The notes under the pieces are model-generated. The model made no database searches. It was not told the DNA's origin and worked only from the letters and a program-made list of their open reading frames with translations. A stretch of DNA of 64,000 nucleotides from Candidatus Omnitrophota bacterium (GTDB lineage Bacteria; Omnitrophota; Gorgyraeia; B26-G9): positions 14,034-78,033 of the forward strand of contig JACQZH010000013.1 in NCBI GenBank assembly GCA_016213925.1, read 5' to 3'. Within the stretch, counting starts at the first letter, position 1. The number at the start of each line of letters is the position of its first letter. Made by a program: the position numbers and the translations under genes. Shown one piece after another: positions 35,186-60,124 of this stretch.

Positions 35186-35224
35186 GACAGGCTATAATAG
35201 GGGTTATCACTGGAAACAAAATTT

Positions 35225-37750: not shown

Positions 37751-37819
37751 AAGCGGTTATTCGCGGGAAAAAATTTTATGAATTTTTCTAAAAGTGCTAT
37801 TAAAGAAAGGAAAGTTAAA

Positions 37820-38185
37820 ATGATTTCGATTGCTTTGTTAATTTTAACTGTATTTATTGCGGCGCTTGGACAGATTCTTCTTAAAAAAGGCATGATTACT
37901 GTAGGTGTAATTTCCCAAGATATTACTTTGTTCAAATATTTTTTTAAAGCTTTTACTAATGTGTATATAATTACCGGGATGATCCTGTATTTTTTGGGTA
38001 CCTTTATCTGGTTAGCGGTTTTGGCAAGGGTGCCGCTTAGCATTGCATATCCGTGTTTGGCTTTAGGATATGTTTTTGTGGCATTGGCGTCAAAAGCGTT
38101 CTTTAATGAAGAGATTGCCATGATCCGCTGGGTTGGAATAATAGTTATATGCCTGGGTGTATTTTTAATCTCAAGGTCGGTTTGA
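37820..38185 (+). CDS. Small 4-TM DMT/SMR-like protein (ArnE/EamA-like flippase subunit)
   Basis: About 121 aa with four hydrophobic helices and a GQILLKKGM pattern. An AAAGGAAAG RBS precedes ATG 37820. The ORF-track start at 37778 is probably too far upstream. Confidence 0.55.
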   Translation: MISIALLILTVFIAALGQILLKKGMITVGVISQDITLFKYFFKAFTNVYIITGMILYFLGTFIWLAVLARVPLSIAYPCLALGYVFVALASKAFFNEEIAMIRWVGIIVICLGVFLISRSV

Positions 38186-38188
38186 GCG

Positions 38189-39436: not shown

Positions 39437-40225
39437 ATGAATGACAAAATATCCAATCTTTTACAAATAAGAGAAGTATTTCACCTGGAATTCTTAAGAT
39501 GGTTTGGAAGAAAAATTAAACCGGCGTGGTACGCTCTTAAAGGCGGGGTGAATTTACGTTTTTTCTTTAATAGTTTTCGATATTCGGAAGATATGGATTT
39601 AGATATCCATACTGTAAAAGTAGTGATTTTAGCCGATGTTGTTATGGGAATACTGCAATCCGTATCTTTTCAGGATAGCCTTAGGCCGTTTGGAATCGAA
39701 AAAATAATTCCTCCAAATATTACAAAAGCAAAACAAACGCAGACGACCCAAAGATTTAAAATCCATTTAATTACCCCCGCGAATGAGGATTTTTTTACTA
39801 AAATTGAATTTTTACGCAGGGGATTTAAAGGAGAAGTTGTTGTTCAGACGGTATCAACCCCTATTTTACGTTTATATAAGTCATCGCCATTAGTAGTTCC
39901 TCATTATGACGCGCAATCTGCGATAATTCAAAAAATAGAAGCTCTTTCAACAAGAGTAATGGTGCAAGCAAGGGATATTTTTGACTTATATATGTTAGCT
40001 TCTTACTATAAACCTTTGGAAAAAAAACAGATTAAAATGGATTTGGTTAAATTTAAAAAAGCGTGTGAAAATGTTTTTACGGTTAGTTTTGAGCAGTTTC
40101 GGGATACAGTAATTTCTTATTTGGCGGCGGATGAGCAGGCGGTATACGCCGAGGCTTCCTTATGGGATGAGATAAAACTGAAAGTTTGCGCTTTTATTGA
40201 GGAAATCCGAAAAACTCATGGCTAA
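39437..40225 (+). CDS. AbiEii/DUF1814-family nucleotidyltransferase (type IV toxin-antitoxin toxin-like)
   Basis: N-terminal region LKGGVNLRFFFNSFRYSEDMDLDIH matches the AbiEii signature (KGGTAL..R.SEDxDxD). Confidence 0.6.
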   Translation: MNDKISNLLQIREVFHLEFLRWFGRKIKPAWYALKGGVNLRFFFNSFRYSEDMDLDIHTVKVVILADVVMGILQSVSFQDSLRPFGIEKIIPPNITKAKQTQTTQRFKIHLITPANEDFFTKIEFLRRGFKGEVVVQTVSTPILRLYKSSPLVVPHYDAQSAIIQKIEALSTRVMVQARDIFDLYMLASYYKPLEKKQIKMDLVKFKKACENVFTVSFEQFRDTVISYLAADEQAVYAEASLWDEIKLKVCAFIEEIRKTHG

Positions 40226-40850
40226 ACATTCTATTTTGAAATTTATTAAAGGATTATATCGGCCTGTGTTTACAACACTTGAATTATCCGCTCTTTCCGG
40301 AAAATCTTTATCTGCTACAATTCAGGCGCTTAATTATCTTGAAAAACAGGGAGTGGTTTTTAAGATATACAGGGGAATTTGGTCTGAAGTTACAAATGAA
40401 TCTTTAAGCCCTTATCTAGTGGTCCCTTTTTTGCTTTCAGGGCAGCGCAGCTATGTATCTTTTATTAGCGCGTTGCATATCTATGGAATAATCGAGCAGA
40501 TTCCTCAATCAATTACTCTCGCTTCAAATGTCCATACCAAGATAATTCATACGAAAGCGGCAACTTTTTATGTCCACCGCATAGCGCCTTCTTTTTTTAA
40601 GGGGTTTAGGTGGTATAAGGACGCGGACAGTTTTTTAATCGCCGAGCCGGAAAAAGCGTTAATCGATTGCCTATACTTATCGGCACGCAAAAAAAAGCAA
40701 TTCGGGTATTTTCCTGAATTATATTTTCCTAAGTCGTTTAGTTTTGGGAAGGCTAGGGAATGGGTTGAGAAAATTCCTGATGATAAGATTAGATCTTCGG
40801 TTAAAAAAAAATTAGATAAAGTTTTTCAATTCAAGAATATTCATGTGTAA
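40218..40850 (+). CDS. AbiEi-like antitoxin/transcriptional regulator (winged helix), partner of the upstream AbiEii-like gene
   Basis: N-terminal wHTH-like segment (LSALSGKSLSATIQALNYLEKQGVVFKIYRGIW). It overlaps the toxin stop by 8 nt (ATGGCTAA). The order is toxin first, the reverse of the canonical abiEi-abiEii arrangement. Confidence 0.45.
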   Translation: MAKHSILKFIKGLYRPVFTTLELSALSGKSLSATIQALNYLEKQGVVFKIYRGIWSEVTNESLSPYLVVPFLLSGQRSYVSFISALHIYGIIEQIPQSITLASNVHTKIIHTKAATFYVHRIAPSFFKGFRWYKDADSFLIAEPEKALIDCLYLSARKKKQFGYFPELYFPKSFSFGKAREWVEKIPDDKIRSSVKKKLDKVFQFKNIHV

Positions 40851-43977: not shown

Positions 43978-45399
43978 ATGAAAAAAGTTGTTTATTATAT
44001 TATGGCCGGAGGACAAGGAATGCGTCTTTGGCCAATGAGCCGGTCTCATTTTCCCAAGCAGCTGCATTCTTTGCTGGGAGAAGGCTCATTGTTTCAGCAA
44101 TCCGTGCAAAGGCTCATAAAGATTAGCAAGCCTGAAAACATTTTGATTGGTACAAGAGAAGATTTGTACTTTTCTATAAGGGAACAATGGCATAATCTGA
44201 ATTTTAAAACCGAGCCCTGGCTTATATTGGAACCGATGAGCCGCAATACCGCCCCGGCTATCGCATTGGCTGTGTTGGCTGTACGGGAGCGTTTTGGCGA
44301 AGATGTGATTATGGTTACGCTTGCCGCGGATCATGTTATAAAAAATCATAAACTGTTTGAAAAACTTTTAAAGGAAGCGGCCATATTTGCTGAAAAAGGG
44401 GATATCGTTACTTTTGGAGTTGTTCCTTCTTATCCGGAAACAGGATATGGGTATATTAAAACCGGCAGAAATTTAAAAAATAATGTGTTCAGTGTCGCGG
44501 AATTTAAAGAAAAACCGAATTTAAGTGTGGCTACGAAGTATGTAAATAGTAAAAAATATCTTTGGAACAGCGGAATGTTTATATTTGATACTAAAGTTAT
44601 TGCGGATAATTTAAAAGAGTTTGCTGCCGAAGTATGGACGTTGTCGCGGGATGTTTGGAAAAAGAGAATTGAAAAAGATGGGGTAATCAGGTTAAAGAAT
44701 AATTTATTCGAAAAGATTCCTAATATATCGATTGATTATGCGGTGATGGAAAAGGCGAAAAGAAAAACAGTTATTAAGGCTGACTTTAGATGGTGTGATG
44801 TAGGCTGCTGGCGTATGGTGCATGAAATATCGCGAAAAGATAAGCAGGGCAATGTGTTTTCCGGTGATGTGTTTGGATTGGATACAAAGAATACTTTTAT
44901 CAAGTCGGAAAAAAGGTTTGTCGCGGCTGTGGGGCTTGAGGATCTTATAATTATTGATACTGCGGATGCTTTATTGATATCTAAGCGCCAGCGCAGCCAG
45001 GATGTAAAACGCATAGTTGATAAACTAAATACACAGGGCTCTGAACTGACTAAGTTCCATACTACGGTTTACAGGCCGTGGGGTAATTACACTGTATTGG
45101 AAGAAGGCCCTGGATATAAAATTAAACGTGTGGTTGTTAATCCAAAACAAAAGCTTTCATTGCAAAAACATAGGTTCAGGAGCGAACATTGGGTGGTGGT
45201 TTGCGGAAAAGCTTGTATTGTCAGCGATAAAAAATCGATTACTTTAAAGTCAAATGAAAGTATTTTTATCCCTAAAGGCCATAAACACCGGATAATGAAT
45301 CCTTTTAATAAGGAAGTGGTGATTATAGAAGTTCAGACTGGATACCGAATAACCGAAAATGATATTGTCAGGTATGACGATATATATGAGCGCAGTTAG
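43978..45399 (+). CDS. manC: Mannose-1-phosphate guanylyltransferase / mannose-6-phosphate isomerase (type II, cupin C-terminus)
   Basis: N-terminal GGQGMRLWPMSRSHFPKQ. The cupin C-terminus (KPWGNY..EHWVVV) is typical of ManC/XanB/CpsB. Confidence 0.8.
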   Translation: MKKVVYYIMAGGQGMRLWPMSRSHFPKQLHSLLGEGSLFQQSVQRLIKISKPENILIGTREDLYFSIREQWHNLNFKTEPWLILEPMSRNTAPAIALAVLAVRERFGEDVIMVTLAADHVIKNHKLFEKLLKEAAIFAEKGDIVTFGVVPSYPETGYGYIKTGRNLKNNVFSVAEFKEKPNLSVATKYVNSKKYLWNSGMFIFDTKVIADNLKEFAAEVWTLSRDVWKKRIEKDGVIRLKNNLFEKIPNISIDYAVMEKAKRKTVIKADFRWCDVGCWRMVHEISRKDKQGNVFSGDVFGLDTKNTFIKSEKRFVAAVGLEDLIIIDTADALLISKRQRSQDVKRIVDKLNTQGSELTKFHTTVYRPWGNYTVLEEGPGYKIKRVVVNPKQKLSLQKHRFRSEHWVVVCGKACIVSDKKSITLKSNESIFIPKGHKHRIMNPFNKEVVIIEVQTGYRITENDIVRYDDIYERS

Positions 45400-46007
45400 C
45401 TTATTAGCGCATTAGTACATTTGATTATTAGGCAGAAGATGCAAGGATAAATGCGCTAAAATAAAAAAATTGGCAAATGAACGGATTTTAAGGTATAATT
45501 ATTAAGGTAAGGTAAATATCCATAATAGGATAAAAATCATATTACTTTATTTATTTTTTTTTACAGATAACGGCAAACTTTTCCCGAAGGCAGCAACATT
45601 AAAAGATGCGTGTCGGGATACCGAGGTAATGTTAGAAAAACATATTCGGGAGCAAAAGTAAAGGGCTGTGCCCAGGGTTAAATTAATTTAACCCAACAAG
45701 AGGCCTCGAAAAAAATACGAAATCATATAAATTAGGTTCGAGGCAAAACTGTGGGTCTAAAAGAGAGTCTTTTAGAAAACTGGGTTGCCTAAGTAAAGAG
45801 AAACACTGCCGAACTATCATGTAAAAAAAGGATAGTCCGGTTTTTTTATGCTTGCTAAATTATCTTTTCATTGAAAGGAGGTGCCGGATAGTTTTTAAAA
45901 AGTATAAATAGAAAGGGAGGAGGTGGGAAAGAAGAAATAAGTTTAATCTACAGCTAGAGGTATGAGGTATGAGAATAAATTAATATTAAATACGGGGGAA
46001 ATAGTTC

Positions 46008-46036
46008 TTGACATTAAAAAATAGTTTTGATACATA
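46008..46036 (+). promoter_or_regulatory. Candidate promoter for the pilin gene
   Basis: TTGACA (46008-46013), a 17-nt spacer, then TGaTACATA, an extended -10-like element ending at 46036. This is about 45 nt upstream of ATG 46083. Confidence 0.3.
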
Positions 46037-46082
46037 TATAACCAATAGAAGAAATATGAGTTTAAAAATAGGGGAGGAAAAA

Positions 46083-46499
46083 ATGGATAAAAAGGGTTTT
46101 ACGCTTGTTGAACTTTTGATGGTAGTTATCATCATCGGTATACTTGTTACTTTGGCAGTACCAAACTACTATCGTTCTATCGAAAGAGCAAAGGCAGGAA
46201 AAGCGAAAGCAGCTATGGACGCGATTAGAAAAGCAGAGATTCAATATCGCGCTTTTAATGATGAATATATAGACTTAAATGGAGACATGGCTGAATTAGA
46301 ACCGTATGATCTTCCGGCTGATATTGTGGATGATGCTAATGATAGTGATTGGACATATTCTGTCGACGGATCCGGTGAAGATGCTATGCTTATTCATGCT
46401 GAAAGAGATGATGGGCCTAACGCCACAGAAGAATTAACGATGGACCAGGACGGAGTTATGGCTAATCCGGGCGCTATCCCGGAATGGGGAGTTAACTAA
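46083..46499 (+). CDS. Type IV pilin/pseudopilin with an N-terminal prepilin methylation motif
   Basis: MDKKGFTLVELLMVVIIIGIL is a class III signal peptide (G|FTLVE). An AGGGGAGGAAAAA RBS lies upstream. The ORF-track start at 46008 is read-through of the leader. Confidence 0.85.
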   Translation: MDKKGFTLVELLMVVIIIGILVTLAVPNYYRSIERAKAGKAKAAMDAIRKAEIQYRAFNDEYIDLNGDMAELEPYDLPADIVDDANDSDWTYSVDGSGEDAMLIHAERDDGPNATEELTMDQDGVMANPGAIPEWGVN

Positions 46500-46540
46500 T
46501 TTTGTAATTTGATTCACGGAGGAAAAGTAATTGAAGGTTT

Positions 46541-46598
46541 GCCGTTGGTTTATTCTTAGGTTTTATTGAACGCAAGAATGAACCAACGGCATTTTTTT
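46541..46598 (+). terminator. Rho-independent terminator after the pilin gene
   Basis: Perfect 10-bp stem GCCGTTGGTT / AACCAACGGC (46541-46550 and 46581-46590), followed by T7 at 46592-46598. Confidence 0.7.
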
Positions 46599-46635
46599 GA
46601 CATTTTAAAGGTGTTAAATTTATGAGGAGGGAAAT

Positions 46636-47706
46636 ATGCGGATAATCGCCATTGCTAATCAGAAAGGGGGATGCGGCAAAACAACTACGGCAATTAATCT
46701 TAGCGCGTGTCTTTCTAAACTTGGCAGGAATGTATTGCTGATTGATTTGGACCCACAAGGGCACGCTACCTTGGGATTAAATGTGAATCCCAACGATCAG
46801 GATAAAACAATGTACAATGTGTTAACTCCTCTTTTGGAAAAAAGATTACGCCTTGATGAAATTATTATTCCTATTTCTGATGGCCTTGACCTTGCGCCGG
46901 CAAATATTTTATTATCCGCGATCGAACAAGAACTTTCCGGCAAACCGGAACGAGAGGCAAGGCTTTCGCAGGCGATTTCCTTAATGGTTACGGATAAGAC
47001 TTATGAGTTCATTATAATTGATTGTTCCCCAAGCCTAGGGATGTTGACATTCAACGCGTTACGGGCTTGCCGCGAACTTATTTCTCCGGTTGATACGGGG
47101 TTCTTTTCTTTGCATGGGATCGGTAAATTAATTGAAACGGTTAAGCTGATTGAAAAAGAGTTAAGATATAAAATCCCCGTAACAGCTTTGGTTACTATGT
47201 TTGATCAGCGCACAAAGTTTTCACACGAGGTGAAAGAAGAAATTAACAAATATTTTTCAGGAAACGTATTCTCTGCGTCTATCCGTAATAATGTGCGTTT
47301 AAAAGAGGCGTCAAGTTATGGTAAGGCGGTAATTGATTATGATAAGCGCTCGAGCGGCGCGCTGGATTATTCTGCTGTTGCAAAAGAATTAATTTATGGA
47401 ATTGTTAAAAAAGAAGAGCCGGTTAACCCGATAAAATTAAGCAGGGAAATGATCTTTAGCTTTTATGATCCGAATGCTCAAAGCGTGGAAATAGCCGGTG
47501 ACTTTAATAATTGGACAGCAACTCAAGAAAGCAAACTTGAATATTTAAATGATGGTAAATGGAAAAAAGAGTTTAGCCTTGAGCCTGGCCGTTACCGCTA
47601 TAAATTCGTAGTAGACGGTAAATGGGTCGTTGATCCCAATAATCCGAATACAGAGCCGGACAATAGCGGGAATATTAATTCGCTATTAGAAATAAAAAAG
47701 GATTGA
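46636..47706 (+). CDS. ParA/MinD-family P-loop ATPase fused to a C-terminal CBM48/AMPK-beta-like glucan-binding domain
   Basis: Deviant Walker A KGGCGKTT at the N-terminus. The C-terminal ~100 aa (IFSFYDPNAQSVEIAGDFNNW..GRYRYKFVVDGKWVVDPNNPNTEPDNSGNINS) matches the AMPK-beta / CBM48 glycogen-binding signature. A GAGGAGGG RBS precedes it. Confidence 0.75.
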   Translation: MRIIAIANQKGGCGKTTTAINLSACLSKLGRNVLLIDLDPQGHATLGLNVNPNDQDKTMYNVLTPLLEKRLRLDEIIIPISDGLDLAPANILLSAIEQELSGKPEREARLSQAISLMVTDKTYEFIIIDCSPSLGMLTFNALRACRELISPVDTGFFSLHGIGKLIETVKLIEKELRYKIPVTALVTMFDQRTKFSHEVKEEINKYFSGNVFSASIRNNVRLKEASSYGKAVIDYDKRSSGALDYSAVAKELIYGIVKKEEPVNPIKLSREMIFSFYDPNAQSVEIAGDFNNWTATQESKLEYLNDGKWKKEFSLEPGRYRYKFVVDGKWVVDPNNPNTEPDNSGNINSLLEIKKD

Positions 47707-47721
47707 TTTTTGGGTAAATAA

Positions 47722-48639
47722 ATGAGCAAAGTTAAAAAATTGGGTAAAGGCCTTGAGGATATATCGCATTTGTTCTTGTCTTCAGGAGATAAAGAAATTT
47801 CTTTTTCAGGCCAGGAGCAATCTTTATTACTAACACGGACTAAAAGTATCTGTCTTGTCGGTAATGGGGCTAAATTTCATGATTCTTTTCTGGTTATAAA
47901 TCTTGCGCTGGCTTTAGCCCGCTTGGGCATGCGCATTGCTGTGGTAGACGCCGATGAGGATCTTCCTTGTTTAAATTTTCTTCTCGGCAAAGAACAATCT
48001 AATAACGGAATAAATACAAGCGAAGTGTTTATCCAAAAAGGCCCTTTGGGGGTTCAGCTGGTGGGCTTAAATCAGAAGCGTTTAAGCCAGTTTCCCGATG
48101 CTCAAAAACAGGAATATATGCTTGAACAGTTGAGACAGGTGGAAAATGAGGTTGATTTAATAATGGTTAGTATGGCGCGCAGGAATTTACAGGATATGCG
48201 CCGGTTTTTAGAGAATTCTATCAGGGAATTTTTAGTTTTAGTATCTCCTGATAAGGACGATATGCTTTCCGCTTATGCGGTGATAAAGTCAATTTTCAAT
48301 GCGGATATTTTGGCGAAAATAGGCGTGATTATCACAGAGATAAATCATATGTATGAGATCGATGCGGTTTATGATAAGTTATACCAAGCTGTGCAGAAAT
48401 TTTTGGATAAACAGTTATATAAGTACGGATTTCTTTTTAAGATAAATCAGGATGTTGATTCTACGGCAAATATAGCGTCATTCTATGACGCGGATCTTAC
48501 AGCCTGCATTTCTAATATTGCCCAGATTGTTGTTTTAAGGTTGAACCTGGGCAATGAATCATCTGCCGGCGGGGCATTTTTTACGCGTTTATTTAATAAT
48601 TACCGGAGAATTGAAAATAATGGCAACGGTATTTCGTAA
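47722..48639 (+). CDS. Degenerate ParA/MinD-like protein (no canonical Walker A) with a ParB-like N-terminal peptide KKLGKGLEDISHLFLS
   Basis: The region ICLVGNGAKFHDSFLVINLALALARLGMRIAVVDAD resembles a ParA/MinD fold with a degenerate P-loop. The N-terminal LGKGLE motif resembles the ParA-activating LG(R/K)GL N-terminus of ParB proteins. Confidence 0.5.
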   Translation: MSKVKKLGKGLEDISHLFLSSGDKEISFSGQEQSLLLTRTKSICLVGNGAKFHDSFLVINLALALARLGMRIAVVDADEDLPCLNFLLGKEQSNNGINTSEVFIQKGPLGVQLVGLNQKRLSQFPDAQKQEYMLEQLRQVENEVDLIMVSMARRNLQDMRRFLENSIREFLVLVSPDKDDMLSAYAVIKSIFNADILAKIGVIITEINHMYEIDAVYDKLYQAVQKFLDKQLYKYGFLFKINQDVDSTANIASFYDADLTACISNIAQIVVLRLNLGNESSAGGAFFTRLFNNYRRIENNGNGIS

Positions 48640-49264
48640 ATCTCAAATTGATAAAGAAAAGCTTAGGGAAATTATTTTAAAAAATCCGGATGATTTGTTG
48701 CCGGGTTTAAGTTTTATTGACCAGCAGATTGGTTCTGAAGAATACGGTATTATTGATTTTCTTGGAGTAAACGTTAAGGGCGAGCTGATAATAGTTAATT
48801 TGGGGACAGCTATTAATGAAGGTCTCTTGGTTTCTTCTTTGAGCCAGCTAACTTGGCTTAAAGAAAATAAAAGTCTGCTTAAACGTTTATTTTTTAGCGA
48901 AAATATTGATTTTGATAAAGCTCCTCAAATAGTGCTTGTTGGAAACTGGTTTTCAGAGAGGTTCAAGTTTGCAGTTTTCCAGTTGCCGCGGCAAAATATC
49001 CATTTGATAGAATATAAGTACCTTATCGCGGAAGGTAAAGATGCGATAATTTTCGAAGAAATTGCGGATAAGAATCGCTGTGAGTGCGAGCCAGCCGCTC
49101 CCAGGCAACCGCAAACGGAAAATATTCCGGAGAATAGAGCGCATCTAACTGTCCAATCAAAGGATACTCTTTGGAAATCGCAAAAAGAACTGCTTACCAG
49201 CGAAGAAATAGCTGAATTTTTGGATTTTGACTTCAATCTTGGCGAAGAAAGGCCAGCAGCATAA
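48620..49264 (+). CDS. PD-(D/E)xK nuclease-like (DUF91/NucS-like fold) protein
   Basis: The GIIDFLGVNVKGELIIVNL block resembles the D..(D/E)xK core of DUF91/NucS-type nucleases. A GGAGA RBS precedes ATG 48620. The ORF-track start at 48554 overlaps the upstream gene. Confidence 0.35.
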   Translation: MATVFRKSQIDKEKLREIILKNPDDLLPGLSFIDQQIGSEEYGIIDFLGVNVKGELIIVNLGTAINEGLLVSSLSQLTWLKENKSLLKRLFFSENIDFDKAPQIVLVGNWFSERFKFAVFQLPRQNIHLIEYKYLIAEGKDAIIFEEIADKNRCECEPAAPRQPQTENIPENRAHLTVQSKDTLWKSQKELLTSEEIAEFLDFDFNLGEERPAA

Positions 49265-49310
49265 TGTCCCGGCGCAGGTTGTTCTTAACAGCATATCGTA
49301 TTTTTAAATA

Positions 49311-50087
49311 ATGACTGAAGAAAAGAAACAATTAAAAAGAAAATCCGAATCAGGTTATTATTATAGCCGGTTGATCCCAAAGAACATAATCTGCGCCTTT
49401 ACCACCAGAGAACATGATTACGGCTTGCGTAATGCCGAAAACTTTCATGAGTACAGTAATAATCTTAAGGCGCGTTTAAATTTTTTTAACCGTTTTGGCG
49501 GAAAACCTGAAAATATAGTTTTTTTTGAGCAGGTTCACAAGGCGAATATTTCAGTAGTTGAAAAAAAAGATTGCGGCAGCGGAGTTTTTGATTTTAGAAA
49601 CGCGCTGCGTTCTTCTGATGCCGCGGTTTGCCAAACTGCGGATATTGGCTTATGTATATTAACGGCTGATTGTTTGCCGGTATTCTTTATTGAGCCTAAA
49701 AAAAAGGTTATTGGGATTGCTCATGCCGGATGGCGAGGGACAAATCTTGGCATCTCTGTCCGGACTGTTAAAGTAATGGTAAATAATTTTCAGGCTGATC
49801 CAAATAATATAGAAGTGTATTTTGGCCCTGGAATACGCGTGTGTTGTTATGAAGTAGGCAGGGAGCTCTTACCGTTTTTTCCTGAACAGATTAAAAAGCG
49901 AGGGAAACGTTTTTACCTGGATCTGGTAAAGGCAAATATTACAAGGTTGAAAAAGGCAGGTATTAAAACAGAAAATATATTTGATGCAGGCATCTGCACA
50001 AAGTGTAATAACGATAAGTTTTTTTCTTTTCGCGCAGGAGATACTTATAAAAGGATGATGAGCCTAATCATGATAAAAAACAAATAG
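49311..50087 (+). CDS. YfiH/PgeF (DUF152, laccase-domain, purine nucleoside phosphorylase-like) family protein
   Basis: Motifs LTADCLPVFF and IAHAGWRGT are characteristic of DUF152. Confidence 0.7.
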   Translation: MTEEKKQLKRKSESGYYYSRLIPKNIICAFTTREHDYGLRNAENFHEYSNNLKARLNFFNRFGGKPENIVFFEQVHKANISVVEKKDCGSGVFDFRNALRSSDAAVCQTADIGLCILTADCLPVFFIEPKKKVIGIAHAGWRGTNLGISVRTVKVMVNNFQADPNNIEVYFGPGIRVCCYEVGRELLPFFPEQIKKRGKRFYLDLVKANITRLKKAGIKTENIFDAGICTKCNNDKFFSFRAGDTYKRMMSLIMIKNK

Positions 50088-50243
50088 TTAGCAGTAATCA
50101 ACCTTTTGCGCGCCATTGCGAAAAAAGAAGATAGTGCGCTGTAGAAATATCTCCTTGACTTTTATTAATAAAAGTAGTAATGTTAAGGGCACGGTAAATT
50201 TTAGAATGTAATAAATAATTGCTGATTTTAGCCATGAATAATT

Positions 50244-51686
50244 ATGAAGAAAATAAAAAAAACTGTTAATAAATCCAATAAGCTGCAACATTTTAAAACA
50301 GGGTTTCCTGAAAAGACAGAAATAATTTTAAGAAAAACACAGCAGAGGAAAGTTACCCCGACTACAAAAAAATTAGGCAAAGGGCTTGAAGATATATCTT
50401 ATTTATTTTTATCCGGTTCGGATAAAAATAAACAAGCTGGGAGACAGCCAGTATCCAGCCGTTCGACAGTTAAAAAAATTGCGCCAAAGACTGAAAAAAC
50501 TTCTGTAAGAACTTTGGAATCGGCTTCTGTGAAAAAAACTAAAAAAGTTTCTGCCAAGGCTCCTGCGGTTAAGGCGAAGATAAAAACAAAAGCCCGGATA
50601 AATAAAACAGAACCTATAATAATAAGTAGAAAAACAGGGGTGATAACAATGGATAAAATTCAAAAAAACGGCTCAACACAAAAAAATAATGTTGAAGCTA
50701 AAAAAGTATCAAAAACCGAGGAAAAGAAAAGCTTGGAAACTCTAAAGAAGAAAACATCCAGGCTGGGTTCAATCAGCGAATTAAAAACATTATTCAAGAA
50801 AAAAATATCGCAGCCTGTGCCGGAAAATATCCAGCAGGAACAGGTAATTGAGGAAAGTAAATTTTTTGTCGGGCCGGCGGTATCTGAGTTGCAAAAACAG
50901 GAAATACAGGCGAGTGATATCCCTTCCGGGTACGGCGACAATCGTATTGTTATTCAGGTAAGAGATCCTTACTGGTTGCATTCTTATTGGGAAATTACAG
51001 CGGAGAAAATAAACTCTTTAAGAAATGAAATAGGCGATGTCATTGATTCTGCCAAAAGGATATTGAGAATTTATGATATTACAAATGTTGTATTTGACGG
51101 TTCCAACGCGAATAAATTTTTTGATATTGAAATAAATAATCATGCCAATAACTGGTATATTCATACCGGAGAAGCTGGGCGCGGCTATTGCGTCGATATC
51201 GGGCTGATACTGCCTGATGGGCGGTTTATTCTTTTAGCTAGGTCGAATTGTGTTGCTACCCCGATAGACGGGCCAAGCTGGATTACAGATGAAGAATGGA
51301 TGGTTATAGAAGATGATTTTAACCGCTTGTACGGTTTATCCGCAGGTTTGGGTATTGGGTTAAGCTCCATGGAATTAAGGAAACAGATAAAGGAAAAGAT
51401 GAAACATATCTCTTCCGGTATGGTTTCGTCTGCGGGCTTGGCCAGGAAAGCCGCTGAACGAAAATTTTGGCTTGTGGTAAATACCGAATTGATAGTATAT
51501 GGCGCGACTGAGCCGGATGCAAGTGTTTCCATCCAGGGCAGGCCAATAAAATTAAATGCGGATGGCACATTTAGTATTCGTTTTGCGTTACCTGATGGAG
51601 AGCAGGTAATACCTGTTAAAGCTGTTTCCGCAGATGGCTTTGAGGAAAGGGTTATTACTCCGGAAGTGCAGAAAAAAACCACATAA
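50244..51686 (+). CDS. Lys-rich protein with a ParB-like N-terminal peptide (TKKLGKGLEDISYLFLS) and a C-terminal DUF4912-like domain
   Basis: The N-terminal motif is shared with the 47722 gene. A low-complexity K/T/S-rich linker follows. The C-terminal about 220 aa (RIVIQVRDPYWLHSYWEI..NNWYIHTGEAGRGYCVDIG) resembles DUF4912, which to my recollection is often encoded next to GH57 genes. Confidence 0.55.
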   Translation: MKKIKKTVNKSNKLQHFKTGFPEKTEIILRKTQQRKVTPTTKKLGKGLEDISYLFLSGSDKNKQAGRQPVSSRSTVKKIAPKTEKTSVRTLESASVKKTKKVSAKAPAVKAKIKTKARINKTEPIIISRKTGVITMDKIQKNGSTQKNNVEAKKVSKTEEKKSLETLKKKTSRLGSISELKTLFKKKISQPVPENIQQEQVIEESKFFVGPAVSELQKQEIQASDIPSGYGDNRIVIQVRDPYWLHSYWEITAEKINSLRNEIGDVIDSAKRILRIYDITNVVFDGSNANKFFDIEINNHANNWYIHTGEAGRGYCVDIGLILPDGRFILLARSNCVATPIDGPSWITDEEWMVIEDDFNRLYGLSAGLGIGLSSMELRKQIKEKMKHISSGMVSSAGLARKAAERKFWLVVNTELIVYGATEPDASVSIQGRPIKLNADGTFSIRFALPDGEQVIPVKAVSADGFEERVITPEVQKKTT

Positions 51687-51723
51687 TTTTTAATTTTTTT
51701 TCCATAAGCTTAGTAAAAAAATA

Positions 51724-51762
51724 ACGCTGGAATTTTTTTTAAAGTATATTCCGGCGTTTTTC
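51724..51762 (+). terminator. Rho-independent terminator after the DUF4912 gene
   Basis: Stem ACGCUGGAAU / AUUCCGGCGU, 10 bp with one G-U pair, a 14-nt loop, then T5 at 51757-51761. Confidence 0.55.
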
Positions 51763-51891
51763 ATTGTTTCCATTGTTAAATATCTTGAATTATGAAAATT
51801 AGTATGTTAAACTAATTACATTATTTTTCTGACTGATCCAGAGTTTTTGGAAAACTATTATAAAATGAGTGTTTTAAAAAGGAAAAACAAA

Positions 51892-53472
51892 ATGGAAAAA
51901 GGATATCTTTGTATTGTTTTACATGGGCACTTACCGTTTGTACGGCATCCCGAACATGAAAATTTTTTGGAAGAGGAATGGTTATATGAAGCAATTACCG
52001 AAACATATATTCCTTTATTAGTAATGTTCGAGCGCTTGTTAGCGGATAATGTTGATTTCCGTGTAACGATAGGATTGTCTCCGACTTTGATTTCCATGTT
52101 AATGGATTCTTTGTTGCAGCAACGTTATATGCGCCATATAGATAAATTGATCGAATTGGCCAGCCGGGAAGTCGAACGTACGCGCTGGCAGCCTGAATTC
52201 AATAAACTTGCGTTAATGTATCTTAGTAAGCTGAATCTTGCCAGGTATACATTTGCTGAAAAATATCATCGCAATATCGTTGAAGGATTTAAGAGAGTTC
52301 AAGATGCTGGAAAACTGGAAATTATGACTTGCGGGGCAACGCACGGTTATTTTCCGCTTATGGATGTTACTAAGGCTTCAATTCGCGCGCAGGTACGTGT
52401 TGCTGTAAATCAGTATAAAAGTGTTTTTGGCCGAAACCCAAGGGGTATTTGGCTTCCGGAATGCGGTTATCAGCCTGGAGATGATGAAATCCTTAAGGAT
52501 TGCGGGTTAAGATATTTTTTCGGAGATACACATGCTGTACTGCATGGTGTCCCTCGTCCCAAATATGGGGTTTTTGCTCCGGTTTATTGTAAATCCGGAG
52601 TCGCTTGTTTTGGCCGTGATGTGGAATCTTCAAAGCAGGTTTGGAGCGCAGCTCAAGGGTATCCTGGTGATTATAACTACCGTGAGTTTTATCGTGATAT
52701 TGGCTTTGATCTGGATTTTGATTATATAAAGCCATATATACATCCGGATGGGATAAGGACTAATACCGGAATAAAATATTACCGGATTACCGGTAAAACA
52801 GACCATAAGCAGCCTTATGTTCCGGAAATAGCAATGGAAACAGCAGCTAGTCATGCCGCCAATTTTATGTTTAACCGGGAAAAACAAGTTGAATATGTAT
52901 ACGGCCTGATAAAAAAAAGGCCGATTATAGTTTCTCCTTATGACGCAGAACTATTCGGGCATTGGTGGTATGAAGGCCCGGAATGGCTGGATTTTCTTAT
53001 CCGGAAGATAGCTTATGACCAGAAAACAATTAAACTTATTAACCCTTCTGAATATCTGGAACGTTATCCGCGTAATCAGGTGATTACTCCTTCTTTATCG
53101 AGTTGGGGGTGGAAGGGGTATTCAGAGTTTTGGCTGGAAGGTTCTAATGACTGGATTTACCGTCATTTACATAAGGCATCTGAACGCATGAATAGGTTAA
53201 CTCAATTATATCCGCAGGCGCAAGGTGTGTTGGTACGTGCTTTAAACCAGGCTTTAAGAGAACTATTGCTGGCGCAAAGTTCCGATTGGGCGTTTATTAT
53301 GAAGACAGGCACGCATGTATCATACGCAGTTGAAAGGACGAAAAATCATCTGCTTAATTTTACAAAACTCTATTACCAGATCAGAAAAAATTCTATTGAT
53401 GAACCTTGGATGGCTAAACTAGAGAGCACAAACAATATTTTTCCTGATATTGATTACAAATTTCATATGTAA
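51892..53472 (+). CDS. Glycoside hydrolase family 57 enzyme (alpha-1,4-glucan branching enzyme type)
   Basis: N-terminal GYLCIVLHGHLPFVRHPEHE is the GH57 signature, with a long C-terminal alpha-helical domain. The start is probably ATG 51892 (AAAGGA RBS); alternatives are 51865 or 51847. Confidence 0.75.
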   Translation: MEKGYLCIVLHGHLPFVRHPEHENFLEEEWLYEAITETYIPLLVMFERLLADNVDFRVTIGLSPTLISMLMDSLLQQRYMRHIDKLIELASREVERTRWQPEFNKLALMYLSKLNLARYTFAEKYHRNIVEGFKRVQDAGKLEIMTCGATHGYFPLMDVTKASIRAQVRVAVNQYKSVFGRNPRGIWLPECGYQPGDDEILKDCGLRYFFGDTHAVLHGVPRPKYGVFAPVYCKSGVACFGRDVESSKQVWSAAQGYPGDYNYREFYRDIGFDLDFDYIKPYIHPDGIRTNTGIKYYRITGKTDHKQPYVPEIAMETAASHAANFMFNREKQVEYVYGLIKKRPIIVSPYDAELFGHWWYEGPEWLDFLIRKIAYDQKTIKLINPSEYLERYPRNQVITPSLSSWGWKGYSEFWLEGSNDWIYRHLHKASERMNRLTQLYPQAQGVLVRALNQALRELLLAQSSDWAFIMKTGTHVSYAVERTKNHLLNFTKLYYQIRKNSIDEPWMAKLESTNNIFPDIDYKFHM

Positions 53473-53524
53473 TAAATTTGAAGTACTGTTTAGGCAGGTA
53501 ATAATCCGCACAGAGTATAACTAA

Positions 53525-54250
53525 ATGCATGCAAAAGAGAAAATCCCCGAACATATAGCGATAATTATGGATGGCAATGGCCGCTGGGCGAATAAAAAAG
53601 GATTACCGCGGATTGCCGGGCACAGGCAGGGTGCTAAGGTTATCAAGTCGATTGTTAAACAAGCCGATGCCGTGGGTGTTAAGTTCTTGACCCTATATAC
53701 TTTTTCTACGGAGAACTGGAAAAGGCCGCAAGCTGAAGTTAATTTTCTTATGCAGCTTCTAAGTGTGTATTTAAAAAAAGAGCTAAACCATCTTAAGGGA
53801 AAAAATGTCCGGTTTCTGACAATTGGCATGATTGAAGCGTTGCCTAAGCTGGCGCGGGATATTTTAAATAAGGCAAAATTAGAAACGCGGGAGAATACCG
53901 GGTTAACGCTTATCTTAGCGCTTAATTATGGAGCACGCAGTGAGATTTTACAGGCTGCGTTATCTTTGCATGAGGATATTGAGAAAGGAAAGATTGATAA
54001 AAAATCAGTTTCAGAAATGGATTTTTCGAAGTACCTTTATACCTCCGGAATTCCAGATCCCGAATTGTTAATCCGGACCAGCGGAGAAAAGCGGTTGAGT
54101 AATTTTCTTCTCTGGCAGCTTTCTTACAGCGAAATATACATTACCGATAGATTTTGGCCGGATTTTGATAAGGATGAGTTTAACAGGGCTATTGAAGATT
54201 TTCAAAATAGGAAACGCCGGTTTGGGGACGTTAGAGAAACCAAAAGTTAA
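53525..54250 (+). CDS. uppS: Undecaprenyl-diphosphate synthase
   Basis: Motifs HIAIIMDGNGRWA, LTLYTFSTENWKRP and RTSGEKRLSNFLLWQ. Confidence 0.9.
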   Translation: MHAKEKIPEHIAIIMDGNGRWANKKGLPRIAGHRQGAKVIKSIVKQADAVGVKFLTLYTFSTENWKRPQAEVNFLMQLLSVYLKKELNHLKGKNVRFLTIGMIEALPKLARDILNKAKLETRENTGLTLILALNYGARSEILQAALSLHEDIEKGKIDKKSVSEMDFSKYLYTSGIPDPELLIRTSGEKRLSNFLLWQLSYSEIYITDRFWPDFDKDEFNRAIEDFQNRKRRFGDVRETKS

Positions 54251-58425: not shown

Positions 58426-60124
58426 ATTTCTCTTGCCTACGCTTAAAGAAATTCCCTCGGAAGCGGAAGCTATAAGCCATATTTTAATGATCCGTGCCGG
58501 TTTGATCCGCAGATTAACTTCAGGGGTATATTCGTATTTGCCTTTAGGTTTGCGTGTGCTAAAAAAAGTTGAAAAAATTATCCGGCAGGAAATGGATTCC
58601 AAGCAGGCGCAGGAGGTCCTTTTGCCGGCAATTCAGCCTATTGAGTTATGGATTAAAAGCGGCCGGTTTGCGGCTCTAGGTGAAGATATGATTACGTTTA
58701 CTGACCGGCATAAAAAAGTTAATGTATTAGGGCCTACACACGAAGAAGTAATTACGGCATTAGTTAAAAATGAGGTTAATTCGTATCGGCAGCTTCCTCT
58801 TATTCTTTACCAGATTCAAACTAAATTCCGCGATGAAGCCAGGCCGCGGTTTGGGGTAATGCGTTCTCGTGAGTTCATCATGAAAGACGCGTACAGTTTT
58901 GACTGTGATGGAGAAGGATTGAATACCAGTTATAATAAAATGTATCAAGCGTATTGCCGGATATTTAAAAGGTGCGGGTTGAATTTTATTGCAGTCGAAG
59001 CGGATACAGGTATTATGGGCGGAGATGTTTCGCATGAATTTATGGTGTTGGCAGAAAATGGCGAAGATATGGTTGTTATCTGTGAAAATTGTAAGTATGC
59101 GGTAAGTATGGATAAGGCGGAATGTGTTAAGCCGGTAACCAGAGGCCAGGAACCAGTAGCCAGAAAAATGGAGGAAGTAAAGACACCTGGTGTTAGTTCG
59201 GTTGAAGATGTAGCGAGATTTTTGAAAGTAGGAGCGGAACAACTGGTCAAAACACTTATATACATAGCGGATGATAAGCCAGTAGCTGTTCTTGTGCGCG
59301 GAGATCATGAAATAAATGAAACAAAACTTAACCGTCTTTTAAAAGCAGGCAGTTTATCTATGGCGGATGAAGAAACAATTCAAAAAGTTACAGGCGGCCC
59401 TTTAGGATTCAGCGGCCCAGTAGGATTAAGCGGCTTAAAAATAATAGCGGACTTAGGTATTGCTGCTTCGTCTAATTTTGTTGTTGGGGCGAATAAATCA
59501 GATGTCCATTTTGTAGGTGTAAATATAGAAAGAGATTTTAAAGTCTGGCAATGGGCAGATGTACGTAATATCATGGACAAAGATATATGTCCAAAATGTA
59601 TGCAGCCGATTAAAATAGAGCAAGCAATAGAAGTTGGGCATGTTTTTAAGCTTGGCACGAAGTATACCGAAAACTTAAATGCTACTTTTCTTGATGAACA
59701 AGGCAAGGCTAAAAAAATTATTATGGGTTGCTATGGTATCGGAGTAACCAGGCTTATTGCCGCTTGTATTGAGCAAAATTGCGATAAAAACGGGATAATC
59801 TGGCCTAAAGAGATTGCTCCGTTTCAGGTAATACTTATGCCGCTTAATACTGCACATGTGTTATCAATGGATTTTGCCAGAACTATTTATGGACATCTAA
59901 CTGAACGCAATATTGAGGTTCTTTTGGATGATCGTGATATTCGTGCCGGAATAAAATTTAAAGATGCGGATTTAATTGGAATCCCTTTGCAGATTATAAT
60001 AGGAGAAAAGAATCTTGAGCAGAACCGTATAGAAATAAAGGAACGAATGACAGGGCAAAGATATATTATTGCGCTGGATGAAGCGTTAAAAAAAACCATT
60101 GAATTGTTAAAAATACCTGGCTGA
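58412..60124 (+). CDS. proS: Prolyl-tRNA synthetase (bacterial type with an editing insertion)
   Basis: N-terminal HILMIRAGLIRRLTSGVYSYLPLGLRVL. Class II motifs are present and the length is 570 aa. Confidence 0.9.
   Translation: MRWTEFLLPTLKEIPSEAEAISHILMIRAGLIRRLTSGVYSYLPLGLRVLKKVEKIIRQEMDSKQAQEVLLPAIQPIELWIKSGRFAALGEDMITFTDRHKKVNVLGPTHEEVITALVKNEVNSYRQLPLILYQIQTKFRDEARPRFGVMRSREFIMKDAYSFDCDGEGLNTSYNKMYQAYCRIFKRCGLNFIAVEADTGIMGGDVSHEFMVLAENGEDMVVICENCKYAVSMDKAECVKPVTRGQEPVARKMEEVKTPGVSSVEDVARFLKVGAEQLVKTLIYIADDKPVAVLVRGDHEINETKLNRLLKAGSLSMADEETIQKVTGGPLGFSGPVGLSGLKIIADLGIAASSNFVVGANKSDVHFVGVNIERDFKVWQWADVRNIMDKDICPKCMQPIKIEQAIEVGHVFKLGTKYTENLNATFLDEQGKAKKIIMGCYGIGVTRLIAACIEQNCDKNGIIWPKEIAPFQVILMPLNTAHVLSMDFARTIYGHLTERNIEVLLDDRDIRAGIKFKDADLIGIPLQIIIGEKNLEQNRIEIKERMTGQRYIIALDEALKKTIELLKIPG

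Follow-up and report, generated by a model that had tools for sequence, protein, structure and literature searches.

ParA-type ATPases normally position DNA or organelles made of protein. What such an ATPase might act on when it carries its own carbohydrate-binding domain is the question raised by a locus in a 64,000-nucleotide stretch of an Omnitrophota genome (the window). The original prediction was that it might position alpha-glucan granules and that no ParA system for such a cargo had been described; neither a glycogen system of this kind nor a paper on one was found in the literature searched.

Layout of the locus

Six ORFs, P1 to P6, were found on the + strand, and all the domain calls that had been made for them were upheld. 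The features of the locus are as follows.

46540-46598, +: terminator-like hairpin with T-run (23-nt arms, 87% complementary, 6-nt loop)
46636-47706, +: P1, ParA-CBM48 fusion ATPase, 356 aa (public gene call 'AAA family ATPase')
46636-47415, +: P1 ATPase domain, aa 1-260, Soj-type ParA (motifs, structure-database relatives)
47470-47700, +: P1 C-terminal CBM48/AMPK-beta-type glycogen-binding module, aa 279-355 (Pfam, structure alignment)
47722-48639, +: P2, partner protein, 305 aa (Pfam, fold comparison)
47734-47781, +: P2 peptide, aa 5-20, KKLGKGLEDISHLFLS, match to the ParB-type ParA-binding/ATPase-activating motif (putative)
48620-49264, +: P3, NucS-like protein, 214 aa (public gene call identical)
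49193-49231, +: P3 C-terminal motif LTSEEIAEFLDFD, family pattern L[ST]xEEIxEF[LM], putative docking helix
49311-50087, +: P4, PgeF/YfiH family protein (Pfam)
50244-51686, +: P5, DUF4912 protein, 480 aa (Pfam)
50367-50414, +: P5 peptide, aa 42-57, KKLGKGLEDISYLFLS, second putative ParA-binding peptide
50931-51290, +: P5 DUF4912 domain, aa 230-349 (Pfam)
51723-51768, +: terminator-like hairpin between P5 and the GH57 gene (read directly from the sequence)
51892-53472, +: P6, GH57 alpha-1,4-glucan branching-type enzyme, 526 aa (Pfam, homolog starts)

The start of P3, originally placed at 48554, had to be moved to the ATG at 48620, and that of P6 (Glyco_hydro_57, 9.5e-39; BE_C, 5.8e-39), for which a mechanical ORF had given TTG 51847, is most likely ATG 51892 (MEKGYL...), as all homologs start likewise. 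The hairpin at 46540-46598, between an upstream pilin gene and P1, delimits the transcription unit at its 5' end and is much stronger than that at 51723-51768, a 10-bp stem with one G-T pair and a 14-nt loop followed by TTTTC, which a consensus terminator scan did not pick up; the terminator claimed 3' of P5 is real but modest. P4 (Cu-oxidase_4/PgeF, 3e-57) is syntenic with the module only within the Omnitrophota clade, and is probably unrelated to the system, a case of lineage-specific synteny.

A Soj-type ATPase fused to a predicted glycogen-binding module

Residues 1-230 of P1 matched AAA_31 (3.6e-50) and CbiA (2.2e-21), and residues 270-355 matched both AMPK1_CBM (2.5e-16; 60.1 bits, cutoff 26.8) and CBM_48 (2e-8), the HMM check that had been suggested for the C-terminal domain. 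The fusion is complete and conserved as well as real: its architecture was identical in at least 116 full-length homologs and it occurred at 80 genome loci, so it is not an assembly artefact.

The closest solved structures were M. xanthus ParA (8ray, 7e-51) and the Soj proteins of T. thermophilus (1wcv, 1.5e-43) and H. pylori (4e-39). The catalytic motifs are intact (KGGCGKTT as the deviant Walker A, D37/D39 as Walker A' and D129 as Walker B) and Arg192 of DxRT is present, with K10, K15, D37 and D129 invariant in the 116 fusion homologs and the DxRT Arg kept in all but one (115/116). R221 of P1 aligns with R238 of M. xanthus ParA, in which the R238E substitution abolishes non-specific DNA binding (PMC12462528), and is K or R in 109/116 homologs; these residues suggest that P1 binds nucleoid DNA. 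The ParB-peptide pocket is represented in P1 by L134/M136/F139/L171/L176, and 5 of the 6 pocket residues that match ParA contacts of the M. xanthus ParB motif are hydrophobic in the P1 family. The equivalent of V116 in the M. xanthus pocket is Gln in 111/116 members, which counts against a role in granule positioning.

The CBM, joined to the ATPase by a linker of variable length, is kept in every member of the family. It aligned end to end with the CBM of AMPK beta1/beta2 (1.9e-10; 2lu3), and LSF1 and SEX4 were also matched. Glycogen binding by AMPK beta requires W100 and K126, with a contribution from W133 (PMC6274970). As had been proposed, glycogen-contact residues are retained: the equivalents of K126 (K or R), W133 (W) and G147 are present in 116/116 homologs and that of N150 in 106/116, and the module probably binds glucan. 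The W100 equivalent is aromatic in only 77/116 (66%), a further point against granule positioning. AMPK beta and the plant proteins SEX4 and LSF1 share this CBM subtype, and the logic is alike in that the module targets a non-glycosidase regulator to glycogen or starch, but in P1 it sits on a bacterial, cytoplasmic P-loop positioning ATPase rather than on a kinase scaffold or phosphatase.

Partition and defence

P1 shares its catalytic motifs, DNA-binding Arg and peptide pocket with the ATPase of chromosomal ParABS systems (Soj/Spo0J-ParB/parS). The module differs from these in having no ParB/Srx CTPase-HTH protein or parS, in a location that is not origin-like, in a partner that is a pseudo-MinD or other scaffold, and in the carbohydrate-binding module on P1 itself. 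Pfam detected no ParB domain or ParB-Srx protein near the module, a parS search returned 2 sites with 3 mismatches where 1.06 would be expected, and the locus had no centromere-like repeat array; a chromosome or plasmid ParA with parS or ParB nearby had been put forward as one case against granule positioning, and neither was found. It is also very improbable that the locus encodes any other ordinary DNA partition system (mobile elements included) or an ATPase-nuclease defence, with the CBM-like domain a mere protein-interaction beta-sandwich. Searches for a PADLOC defence system or a PHROG match were negative, the neighbours are housekeeping genes (ManC, RmlD, UppS, CdsA, Dxr, RseP, IspG and ProS), composition is uniform across the locus and synteny stable within the clade, the glucan contacts of the CBM are strongly conserved, and the (D/E)xK motif of the nuclease-like P3 is lost across phyla.

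A ParB-type peptide on unrelated partners

The second gene had been described as degenerate and ParA-like, and P2 indeed has only a weak CbiA match (7e-7) and a P-loop that reads GNGAKFHDS. A disordered N-terminal 40 aa precedes a pseudo-ATPase domain of MinD/FlhG fold, for which FlhG/FleN gave the best structural matches (4rz2, E 9e-15, TM 0.72-0.76). FlhG, too, has an N-terminal peptide, which activates the partner NTPase FlhF; P2 differs in that Walker A is absent (37/41 members), no membrane-targeting helix is claimed for it and the context is not flagellar.

The hint that the N-termini of P2 and P5 might activate the ATPase was borne out to the extent that both contain a ParB-type peptide, identical at 15/16 positions. 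Its pattern is that of the motif by which M. xanthus ParB binds ParA, as defined by experiment (L11-G-R13-G-L15-x-x-L18-I19, with K for R in about half of ParBs). A peptide-led gene follows the fusion at 75/77 loci with enough sequence (59 strict and 16 variant matches), starting a median of 40 nt past the fusion gene, and the strict regex is rare, with 76 occurrences in the 2.25 million residues that the fusion loci give in six frames. The peptide is a portable module: the scaffolds that bear it, namely P2, Cys-rich c3 proteins of Desulfobacterales and DUF4912, are unrelated and have about 23 residues in common, no more (hhalign). It is an established general rule that ParA partners work by way of a short, basic extension at the N-terminus (PMC7993993), and we infer that the peptide activates P1. 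In PomXYZ of Myxococcus xanthus one ParA/MinD ATPase has two non-homologous activators, each using a short basic N-terminal peptide, to which the presence of the peptide on both P2 and P5 is a parallel; PomXYZ differs in cargo and in output, which is the division site, in the coiled-coil scaffolds PomX and PomY, and in lacking a CBM.

No carbohydrate-binding module was found in P2, c3 or P3, which counts against granule positioning because the classical diffusion-ratchet model needs the activator concentrated on the granule. Partners of this kind fit clients better than cargo adaptors, and glycogen might instead be the matrix, in which case the module would regulate how granules grow or branch and not where they lie. 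As a single CBM48 binds glucan weakly, P1 would then stick to the granule surface only as a dimer with ATP bound and two CBMs, much as MinD dimers attach to membrane by means of two amphipathic helices; the P2 or P5 peptide would reset the cycle, and at the granule the ATPase would time when proteins such as DUF4912-GH57 are recruited or released. ParA/MinD ATPases bind their surface or matrix with the C-terminal region (PMC11407121), where P1 has its CBM on a flexible linker, and in the window's clade an enzyme-associated DUF4912 protein bears the peptide. Against this stands the retention of the residues for non-specific DNA binding, Arg192 (115/116) and K/R221 (109/116), which there would be no reason to keep unless the nucleoid were used. 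We regard the matrix alternative as unlikely but realistic, and it and granule positioning are not mutually exclusive.

P3 and a possible DNA-side output

The fold of P3 is NucS-like, of the PD-(D/E)xK type, and its catalytic motif is degenerate; the protein also has a linker that varies and, at the C-terminus, a helix that is conserved. The helix motif is kept in nearly all lineages, in divergent form (LSxAERKSL) at L074, L076, L079 and L080 and with no clear match at L078, and would suit an interaction with P2. As the fold is of nuclease type and potentially DNA-binding, P3 could be a DNA-related partner, which would not favour granule positioning. The CBM might report glycogen load, as in AMPK beta, by sequestering or releasing a Soj-like ATPase that really acts on DNA (in organising the chromosome, controlling replication or placing the division site), with the P2-P3 complex as the DNA-side partner. 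The AMPK-beta subtype of the CBM, which targets a regulator to glycogen, the closeness of P1 to chromosomal Soj and the scarcity of glucan enzymes near most loci all agree with such a carbon-status sensor. It is nonetheless improbable: the module lacks ParB/Srx and parS, the catalytic motif of P3 and the motifs around it are poorly conserved, and a pure sensor predicts neither recurrent adjacency to DUF4912-GH57 nor transfer of the peptide onto DUF4912.

Glucan genes around the module

P5 (DUF4912, 1e-36) does not, contrary to the original description, end in that domain, since about 130 residues follow it with a Glucodextran_B-like match (4e-6); the order is a Lys-rich tail with the peptide (aa 1-225, net charge +34), DUF4912 and a C-terminal beta-domain. 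In 44/75 metagenome loci DUF4912 and a GH57 gene after it form a conserved pair. The pair lies within complete glycogen operons, which also encode a GT5 synthase, an NTP-transferase-PGM fusion and a GH57 4-alpha-glucanotransferase, and it is widespread in glycogen operons independently of the module. The DUF4912 protein of the window's clade has acquired the partner peptide.

The original prediction made GH57 and DUF4912 part of the operon's logic. Adjacency does recur in three phyla in three arrangements: ParACBM-P2-P3-PgeF-DUF4912-GH57 in Omnitrophota, a convergent operon (GT4/5-GH57-DUF4912-x-GH57-CBM48) in Thermodesulfobacteriota (L031, L065, L070), and DUF4912-GH57 6 kb upstream of the module in Eisenbacteria (L075). 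The unit conserved in 80 genomes, however, is the fusion with its peptide-bearing partner, in most lineages P2 followed by P3; this core spans at least eight phyla, and the GH57/DUF4912 neighbours are not part of it. Most loci outside Omnitrophota have no glucan gene within 10 kb, so that the CBM is the one glucan link there, and ParA genes away from glucan genes had been named as evidence against the proposal. The link survives through the CBM in every member, the adjacency in three phyla and the peptide on the Omnitrophota DUF4912.

A proposed model for granule positioning

The domain architecture, the conserved residues for catalysis, DNA binding, the peptide pocket and glucan contact, the peptide-bearing gene beside nearly every fusion and the genomic links to DUF4912-GH57 lead us to favour, with moderate confidence, ATP-driven tethering or spacing of glycogen granules on the nucleoid by a ParA-type module. 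P1 would bind ATP, dimerise as Soj does, bind nucleoid DNA non-specifically and grip a glycogen particle directly through two flexibly linked CBM48 modules. The motif L-G-K-G-L-x-x-I, displayed on the disordered N-terminus of P2, would enter a hydrophobic pocket where the two P1 subunits meet, as the ParB motif does in ParA, and trigger ATP hydrolysis and release of P1 from DNA. Repeated cycles would keep granules tethered to the nucleoid and distributed across it, so that they would not coalesce and both daughter cells would inherit them. The pseudo-MinD domain of P2 is probably a dimeric scaffold for two peptides and probably docks P3 through the C-terminal helix of P3. In the window's clade the peptide of P5, carried on a Lys-rich tail that is histone-like, would link the GH57 branching machinery with the ATPase, and P5 may be a second activator.

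McdAB, a ParA-type ATPase with a small adjacent partner of basic N-terminus, positions carboxysomes on the nucleoid (PMC13052382, PMC7993993) and offers a parallel in having a non-DNA metabolic body as cargo, as we infer here. Its cargo is bound by McdB and never by the ATPase, whereas in P1 the binding module is built in; P2 is unrelated to McdB, and the cargo would be a polysaccharide rather than a protein shell. PHB granules (PhaM/PhaF/PhaH) and polyP granules (AlgP) are attached to the nucleoid and spaced along it by proteins that join a granule-binding part to a histone-like Lys-rich DNA-binding tail; P5, like about half of DUF4912 proteins, has a Lys-rich tail that recalls this layout. 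The PHB and polyP tethers lack both ATPase activity of their own and a ParA partner, a review listing ATP dependence as 'unknown' (PMC13052382), and the literature searched described no equivalent for glycogen. A ParA-type ATPase with its own predicted glycogen-binding domain, next to the gene of a peptide-bearing partner, suggests a hitherto undescribed machine that positions glycogen granules.

Organisation of the module locus

All six plus-strand ORFs described in the original prediction were present in the window, and each of the domain calls made for them was reproduced in Pfam and NCBIfam searches.

Features of the module locus
46540-46598, + strand: strong hairpin with a T-run, closing the upstream pilin gene
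46636-47706, + strand: P1, 356 aa, ParA-type ATPase with a C-terminal CBM module (Pfam)
47722-48639, + strand: P2, the partner protein, with a weak CbiA match and no P-loop (Pfam)
48620 (start), + strand: P3, 214 aa as in the public gene call, with a weak NucS match
50244-51686, + strand: P5, Lys-rich protein with DUF4912 at aa 230-349, followed by a further C-terminal domain
about 51723-51768, + strand: terminator-like hairpin between P5 and the GH57 gene, where a terminator had been predicted; weaker than that at 46540-46598
51892 (most likely ATG start), + strand: P6, 526 aa, matching homolog lengths, with GH57 and BE_C domains

A type IV pilin or pseudopilin-like gene with an N_methyl motif (46008-46499) lies immediately 5' of P1; across the Omnitrophota clade it accompanies the module in conserved synteny, yet the strong terminator stands between them.

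A ParA-type ATPase with a putative glucan-binding module

The ATPase domain of P1 matched AAA_31 (3.6e-50) and CbiA (2.2e-21) in Pfam, and, among solved structures, a chromosomal ParA (8ray; 7e-51, over aa 2-253) and the Soj protein of T. thermophilus (1.5e-43). Its deviant Walker A motif reads KGGCGKTT, in which K10 and K15 are invariant in 116/116 full-length homologs; the aspartates of Walker A' and Walker B (D37, D39 and D129) are conserved in the same set, and Arg192 of the DxRT motif is kept in all but one of them (115/116). The domain is closest to chromosomal ParAs and carries the sequence features of a Soj-type ParA. The position aligned with R238 of Myxococcus xanthus ParA, where the R238E substitution abolished non-specific DNA binding (PMC12462528), is R221 in P1 and Lys or Arg in 109 of the 116 homologs. 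Basic residues for non-specific DNA binding are thus present at the level of the sequence, and this activity is predicted.

The C-terminal part of P1 had been called a CBM48/AMPK-beta-like domain, and it matched both family models above their curated thresholds (AMPK1_CBM, 2.5e-16, 60.1 bits against a cutoff of 26.8; CBM_48, 2e-8, 34.9 bits against a cutoff of 22.4), with an alignment to the AMPK beta CBM that spans the full length. The equivalents of AMPK beta1 W100, K126, W133, G147 and N150 are F276, K323, W330, G345 and N348, respectively. Across the 116 homologs, the K126 equivalent is always Lys or Arg, the W133 equivalent is always Trp, the G147 equivalent is conserved in all and the N150 equivalent is Asn in 106; the W100 equivalent is only partly conserved, being aromatic in 77. 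Mutation of W100 or K126 in AMPK beta1 abolishes glycogen binding (PMC6274970). The P1 module therefore has the characters of a CBM48/AMPK-beta domain, including the glucan-contact residues, and is predicted to bind glucan.

Size and spread of the fusion family

P1 homologs were taken from a collection of 5.8 billion proteins, and among the best 120 listed all but one carried a precomputed Pfam annotation of a CBM family (AMPK1_CBM, mostly with CBM_48 too). The exception (P0042), a protein of 302 aa, covers only 82% of P1 and is possibly a truncated sequence. Sources named for these 120 were Omnitrophota, Schekmanbacteria, Zixibacteria, Desulfobacterales and the PVC group. A single-pattern scan of 185,579 species genomes, with one genome for each species, gave at least 141 relatives of the fusion, which is a lower bound, and 80 of these loci were retained for neighbourhood analysis. 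The retained loci add MAGs of Nitrospirota, Thermodesulfobacteriota, Latescibacterota, Eisenbacteria and Verrucomicrobiota and others labelled Bdellovibrionota, and some belong to relatives of Desulfosudis oleivorans and Desulfocicer vacuolatum, both of which are cultured. The fusion module occurs in at least eight bacterial phyla. A search of representatives with a junction profile (A1) gives no estimate of family size, as its best 150 matches were dominated by tandem-CBM proteins and held two fusions only.

Tandem arrays, with 3-19 copies per protein, are a very common form of the AMPK-beta-like CBM subtype (P0206-P0353); they include a large class of about 480 aa with four copies and giants of 5000-6200 aa. 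In addition, three contigs of one delta-proteobacterial MAG (MFD09779.bin.1.88; L029, L030 and L050) each carry a ParA-CBM48 gene with c3, a Desulfobacterales protein described below, and in some cases its neighbour c12. Two of the three copies are nearly identical, which could reflect paralogy or strain or assembly redundancy.

A peptide-bearing partner accompanies P1 in the conserved core

All ORFs of the 80 loci were clustered without prior labels. The commonest neighbours of the fusion, both directly downstream, were P2 (41 loci) and P3 (40 loci). GH57 and DUF4912 had been put forward as conserved neighbours; they do stand in fixed order in the Omnitrophota clade (pilin-P1-P2-P3-PgeF-DUF4912-GH57-UppS-CdsA), but across the 80 loci each of them, and PgeF likewise, was found in only 12-14. 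P4, the PgeF/YfiH protein, does not occur outside the Omnitrophota synteny block; it was rejected as a system member and is treated as a neighbour. The conserved core is P1 together with a partner that carries a short N-terminal peptide.

The partner gene starts at a median of 40 nt after the fusion gene, and the N-terminal pattern of its product is (K/R)(K/R)LG(K/R)GLx(D/E)(I/V)Sxx(F/L)LS (aa 5-20 in P2). Using tblastn coordinates, and so independently of ORF calls, a strict regex, which gave only 76 matches in 2.25 million six-frame residues, found the peptide at 59 of 77 loci, and the number rose to 75 of 77 once obvious variants were included. The scaffolds that bear it are unrelated: P2 in most phyla, a shorter P2 variant in Zixibacteria, c3 in Desulfobacterales and the DUF4912 protein in the clade of the window. 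In L018 (10477-11829) and other Desulfobacterales loci, P2-P3 are replaced by c3, a Cys-rich protein of 180 aa that has only a 23-residue peptide in common with P2, followed by c12 (230 aa); Pfam searches found no family on either protein.

The peptide has the pattern of the ParA-binding motif of M. xanthus ParB (L-G-R/K-G-L-x-x-L), a comparison that rests on the published motif and not on a computed alignment. That motif was defined by experiment as L11-G-R13-G-L15-x-x-L18-I19, and about half of ParBs have Lys instead of R13. On the ATPase side, five of the six peptide-pocket residues of ParA are hydrophobic in the P1 family (L134, M136, F139, L171 and L176), and the sixth, V116 in M. xanthus ParA, is a family-specific Gln. 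As a general rule, ParA/MinD ATPases are activated through a short, basic extension at the N-terminus of their partner (PMC7993993). The P1 family has an adjacent partner with a peptide of this kind, and activation by it is predicted.

In its predicted model (pLDDT 79, pTM 0.78), P2 has 40 disordered N-terminal residues followed by an alpha/beta domain, for which the best structural matches were FlhG, FleN and MinD (Foldseek; 4rz2, E 9e-15, TM up to 0.76); hhalign placed P2 with the ParA domain at a probability of 93%. Because 37 of 41 family members have lost Walker A (that of the window reads GNGAKFHDS), P2 was filed as a pseudo-ATPase, derived from a MinD/ParA paralog, which bears out its earlier description as a degenerate ParA-like protein. 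Three deep-branching members retain GxGK[TS]. L107 (5537-6691) encodes a MinD-like ATPase whose Walker A is intact (GGKGGVGKS), two genes upstream of a DUF4912-GH57 pair; its best family-HMM match is the P2 family (4.5e-17), and it is possibly an active relative of P2 in a glycogen context. P3 had been described as PD-(D/E)xK-like. This holds for its fold, which is restriction endonuclease-like and resembles NucS, but the catalytic motif is degenerate: the first Asp is retained (IID), and the (D/E)xK site reads VNLG, VNFD, VTVN or ISVE according to lineage.

No ParB or parS found beside the module

A nearby ParB or parS would have made P1 a chromosome or plasmid ParA by the terms of the original prediction. 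No ParBc domain was found beside P1 with Pfam or NCBIfam (P2 matched only CbiA and P3 only NucS, both weakly), and no other ORF of the 64-kb window bears LG[KR]G. A consensus search for parS gave two sites at three mismatches against 1.06 expected, which is chance level. There was no centromere-like repeat array at 45300-53700, where the notable inverted repeats were the two terminator-like hairpins and one in P5. Thus neither a centromere-binding protein nor parS or centromere repeats were found for the module. An origin in DNA partition or defence is unlikely, given these results, the housekeeping context of the locus (ManC, RmlD, UppS, CdsA, Dxr, RseP, IspG and ProS) and the lack of a matching system in PADLOC or PHROGs; a defence or phage origin was rejected, as PADLOC gave only a weak fold-level match of P3 to PDC-S18 and PHROGs nothing. 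The inverted repeat in P5 (50398-50436) is of 18 bp, 94% complementary with a 3-nt loop; it overlaps the 3' end of the segment coding for the P5 copy of the peptide and runs just beyond it, and may be a coincidence or a regulatory hairpin.

In its proposed mode of action the module is likened to McdAB and not assigned as a member, on the basis of general scans with Pfam, NCBIfam and PHROGs, in which P2 matched nothing beyond CbiA/MinD-type models, and these weakly, and P5 nothing beyond DUF4912 and Glucodextran_B. All described ParA systems differ from the present one, in which the ATPase itself would bind the cargo, via its built-in CBM48.

Base composition is uniform across the window, and of the 58 ORFs that reach 150 aa, 55 run in the + direction. 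Each of the remaining three, on the - strand (37747-38241, 51185-51682 and 58760-59308), overlaps a + strand ORF, with two falling entirely inside a longer one, and these three are probably not genes. GC skew is +0.16 to +0.30 throughout the 64 kb, and the genes follow the presumed leading strand with unusual strictness. Two further features were noted: tandem paralogous large proteins (822 and 841 aa; 32717-37750), each with DUF3108 at its C-terminal end, and a homolog of AbiEii-type nucleotidyltransferase toxins (39437-40225; 1.2e-13), the 3' end of which is overlapped by an ORF of 217 aa (40197-40850), possibly forming a type IV toxin-antitoxin pair.

DUF4912, GH57 and the link to glucan metabolism

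P5 matched the DUF4912 model PF16258 with 126.3 bits (cutoff 29.4). It had been expected to end in this domain, which is indeed present, but a further domain extends beyond aa 349. A structure search showed that no solved structure exists for DUF4912, and a full-text literature search gave two incidental mentions only, nothing relevant. P6 matched Glyco_hydro_57 (9.5e-39) and BE_C (5.8e-39) in Pfam and the branching-enzyme models of NCBIfam at 6.6e-98, yet under their equivalog cutoffs. Having both the catalytic domain and BE_C, it is predicted to be a GH57 alpha-glucan branching enzyme. No other glycogen genes were found among 24 of the 58 window ORFs of at least 150 aa (23 scanned with Pfam, one by translation).

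Besides the Omnitrophota arrangement, three Thermodesulfobacteriota loci have P1-P2-P3 convergent to an operon of a GT4/5 glucosyltransferase, GH57, DUF4912, a 166-aa protein, a GH57 branching enzyme and a standalone CBM48, and an Eisenbacteria MAG has DUF4912-GH57 6 kb upstream of the module. It is unlikely that the proximity of DUF4912-GH57 to the module in three phyla and three arrangements arose by chance: a rough estimate, which we infer and did not compute as a statistic, is about 0.6% per lineage for a 20-kb neighbourhood and of the order of 1e-5 for three of about eleven lineages.

A metagenome scan with the DUF4912 profile gave 461 relatives. GH57 lay within two genes of DUF4912 in 44 of 75 analysable loci, nearly always directly after it. 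The pair was often part of a complete glycogen operon that also encodes a GT5 synthase, an NTP-transferase-phosphoglucomutase fusion, a GH57 4-alpha-glucanotransferase and, in some cases, a standalone CBM48. Compact operons in L126 (107-9643) and L130 (4513-14196) have the order GH57 4-alpha-glucanotransferase, GalT-like protein, (standalone CBM48), DUF4912, GH57 branching enzyme, 817-aa NTP-transferase-phosphoglucomutase fusion and GT5 glycogen synthase. The N-terminal modules of DUF4912 proteins are interchangeable (L084-L163, e.g. L090 8001-8432, L104, L106 and L126 3164-4144), and include a Lys-rich basic tail (net charge of at least +8 in 34 of 73), a Rho_N/SAP-like helix pair (TREELA..KSLGVKG..) and, in forms of 237-251 aa, a single transmembrane helix. 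The peptide occurs on the Lys-rich tail in the sub-clade of the window only (9 of 12 proteins, the window included; aa 42-57 of P5), and is identical to that of P2 at 15 of 16 residues. These modular N-termini suggest that, within the GH57 glycogen machinery, DUF4912 serves as a localisation ('address') subunit.

Discussion

The best-supported reading of the sequence evidence is that the module would carry out ParA-type tethering and spacing of alpha-glucan granules. ATP-bound dimers of P1 would bind the nucleoid and hold glycogen through their two CBMs, and the partner peptide would trigger hydrolysis and release; in the organism of the window, the DUF4912-GH57 machinery would be wired to the same ATPase. 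The main weakness of this reading is that the activators carry no CBM, and their concentration at the cargo is therefore left unexplained. An alternative is a MinD-like logic, in which only the bivalent ATP dimer of P1 binds glycogen and the cycle times the recruitment of enzymes. The system might instead be a glycogen-sensing regulator of a DNA-directed ParA, the least favoured of these three readings.

Under the tethering reading, the module is classed as a putative ParA/partner positioning system in which the cargo class and the placing of the cargo-binding element on the ATPase itself would be new. In the original prediction no described ParA system was known for glycogen, and our full-text search, with most subscription journals outside its coverage, found no paper on such a system, nor anything relevant on ParA with CBM48 or on ParA-like ATPases with glycogen. 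Glycogen is not mentioned in a 2024 review of ParA/MinD proteins (PMC11407121) or a 2025 review of organelle positioning (PMC13052382), which cover DNA, carboxysomes, chemoreceptor arrays, PHB and polyphosphate as cargos. PHB and polyphosphate granules are tethered to the nucleoid by histone-like proteins unrelated to ParA (PMC13052382). Tentatively, and with the balance judged to lie slightly against the claim as a whole, we propose that this may be the first ParA/MinD-family machine dedicated to storage granules made of polysaccharide, with members in at least eight phyla, in which the ATPase binds the cargo by its own CBM48 and interchangeable scaffolds deliver a ParB-type activating peptide. 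If so, a corollary is that DUF4912 would act as the 'address' subunit for the GH57 glycogen machinery, a role not recognised so far: its N-terminal module, whether membrane helix, Rho_N/SAP-like helices, histone-like tail or ParA-binding peptide, would decide the cellular site of glycogen synthesis.

Glycogen is the most widespread carbon store of bacteria, and the module offers a concrete handle on its placement and partitioning, in the form of a putative glucan-binding ATPase, a 16-residue peptide predicted to activate it, two conserved accessory proteins and a link to the DUF4912-GH57 pair of many glycogen operons. Confirmation of the proposed role would bring a cargo that is neither protein nor DNA into the ParA paradigm, reveal a new design in which the cargo-binding element is on the motor instead of the adaptor, and provide a first function for DUF4912; the module could then also serve as a compact tool to position assemblies tagged with glucan in engineered cells.
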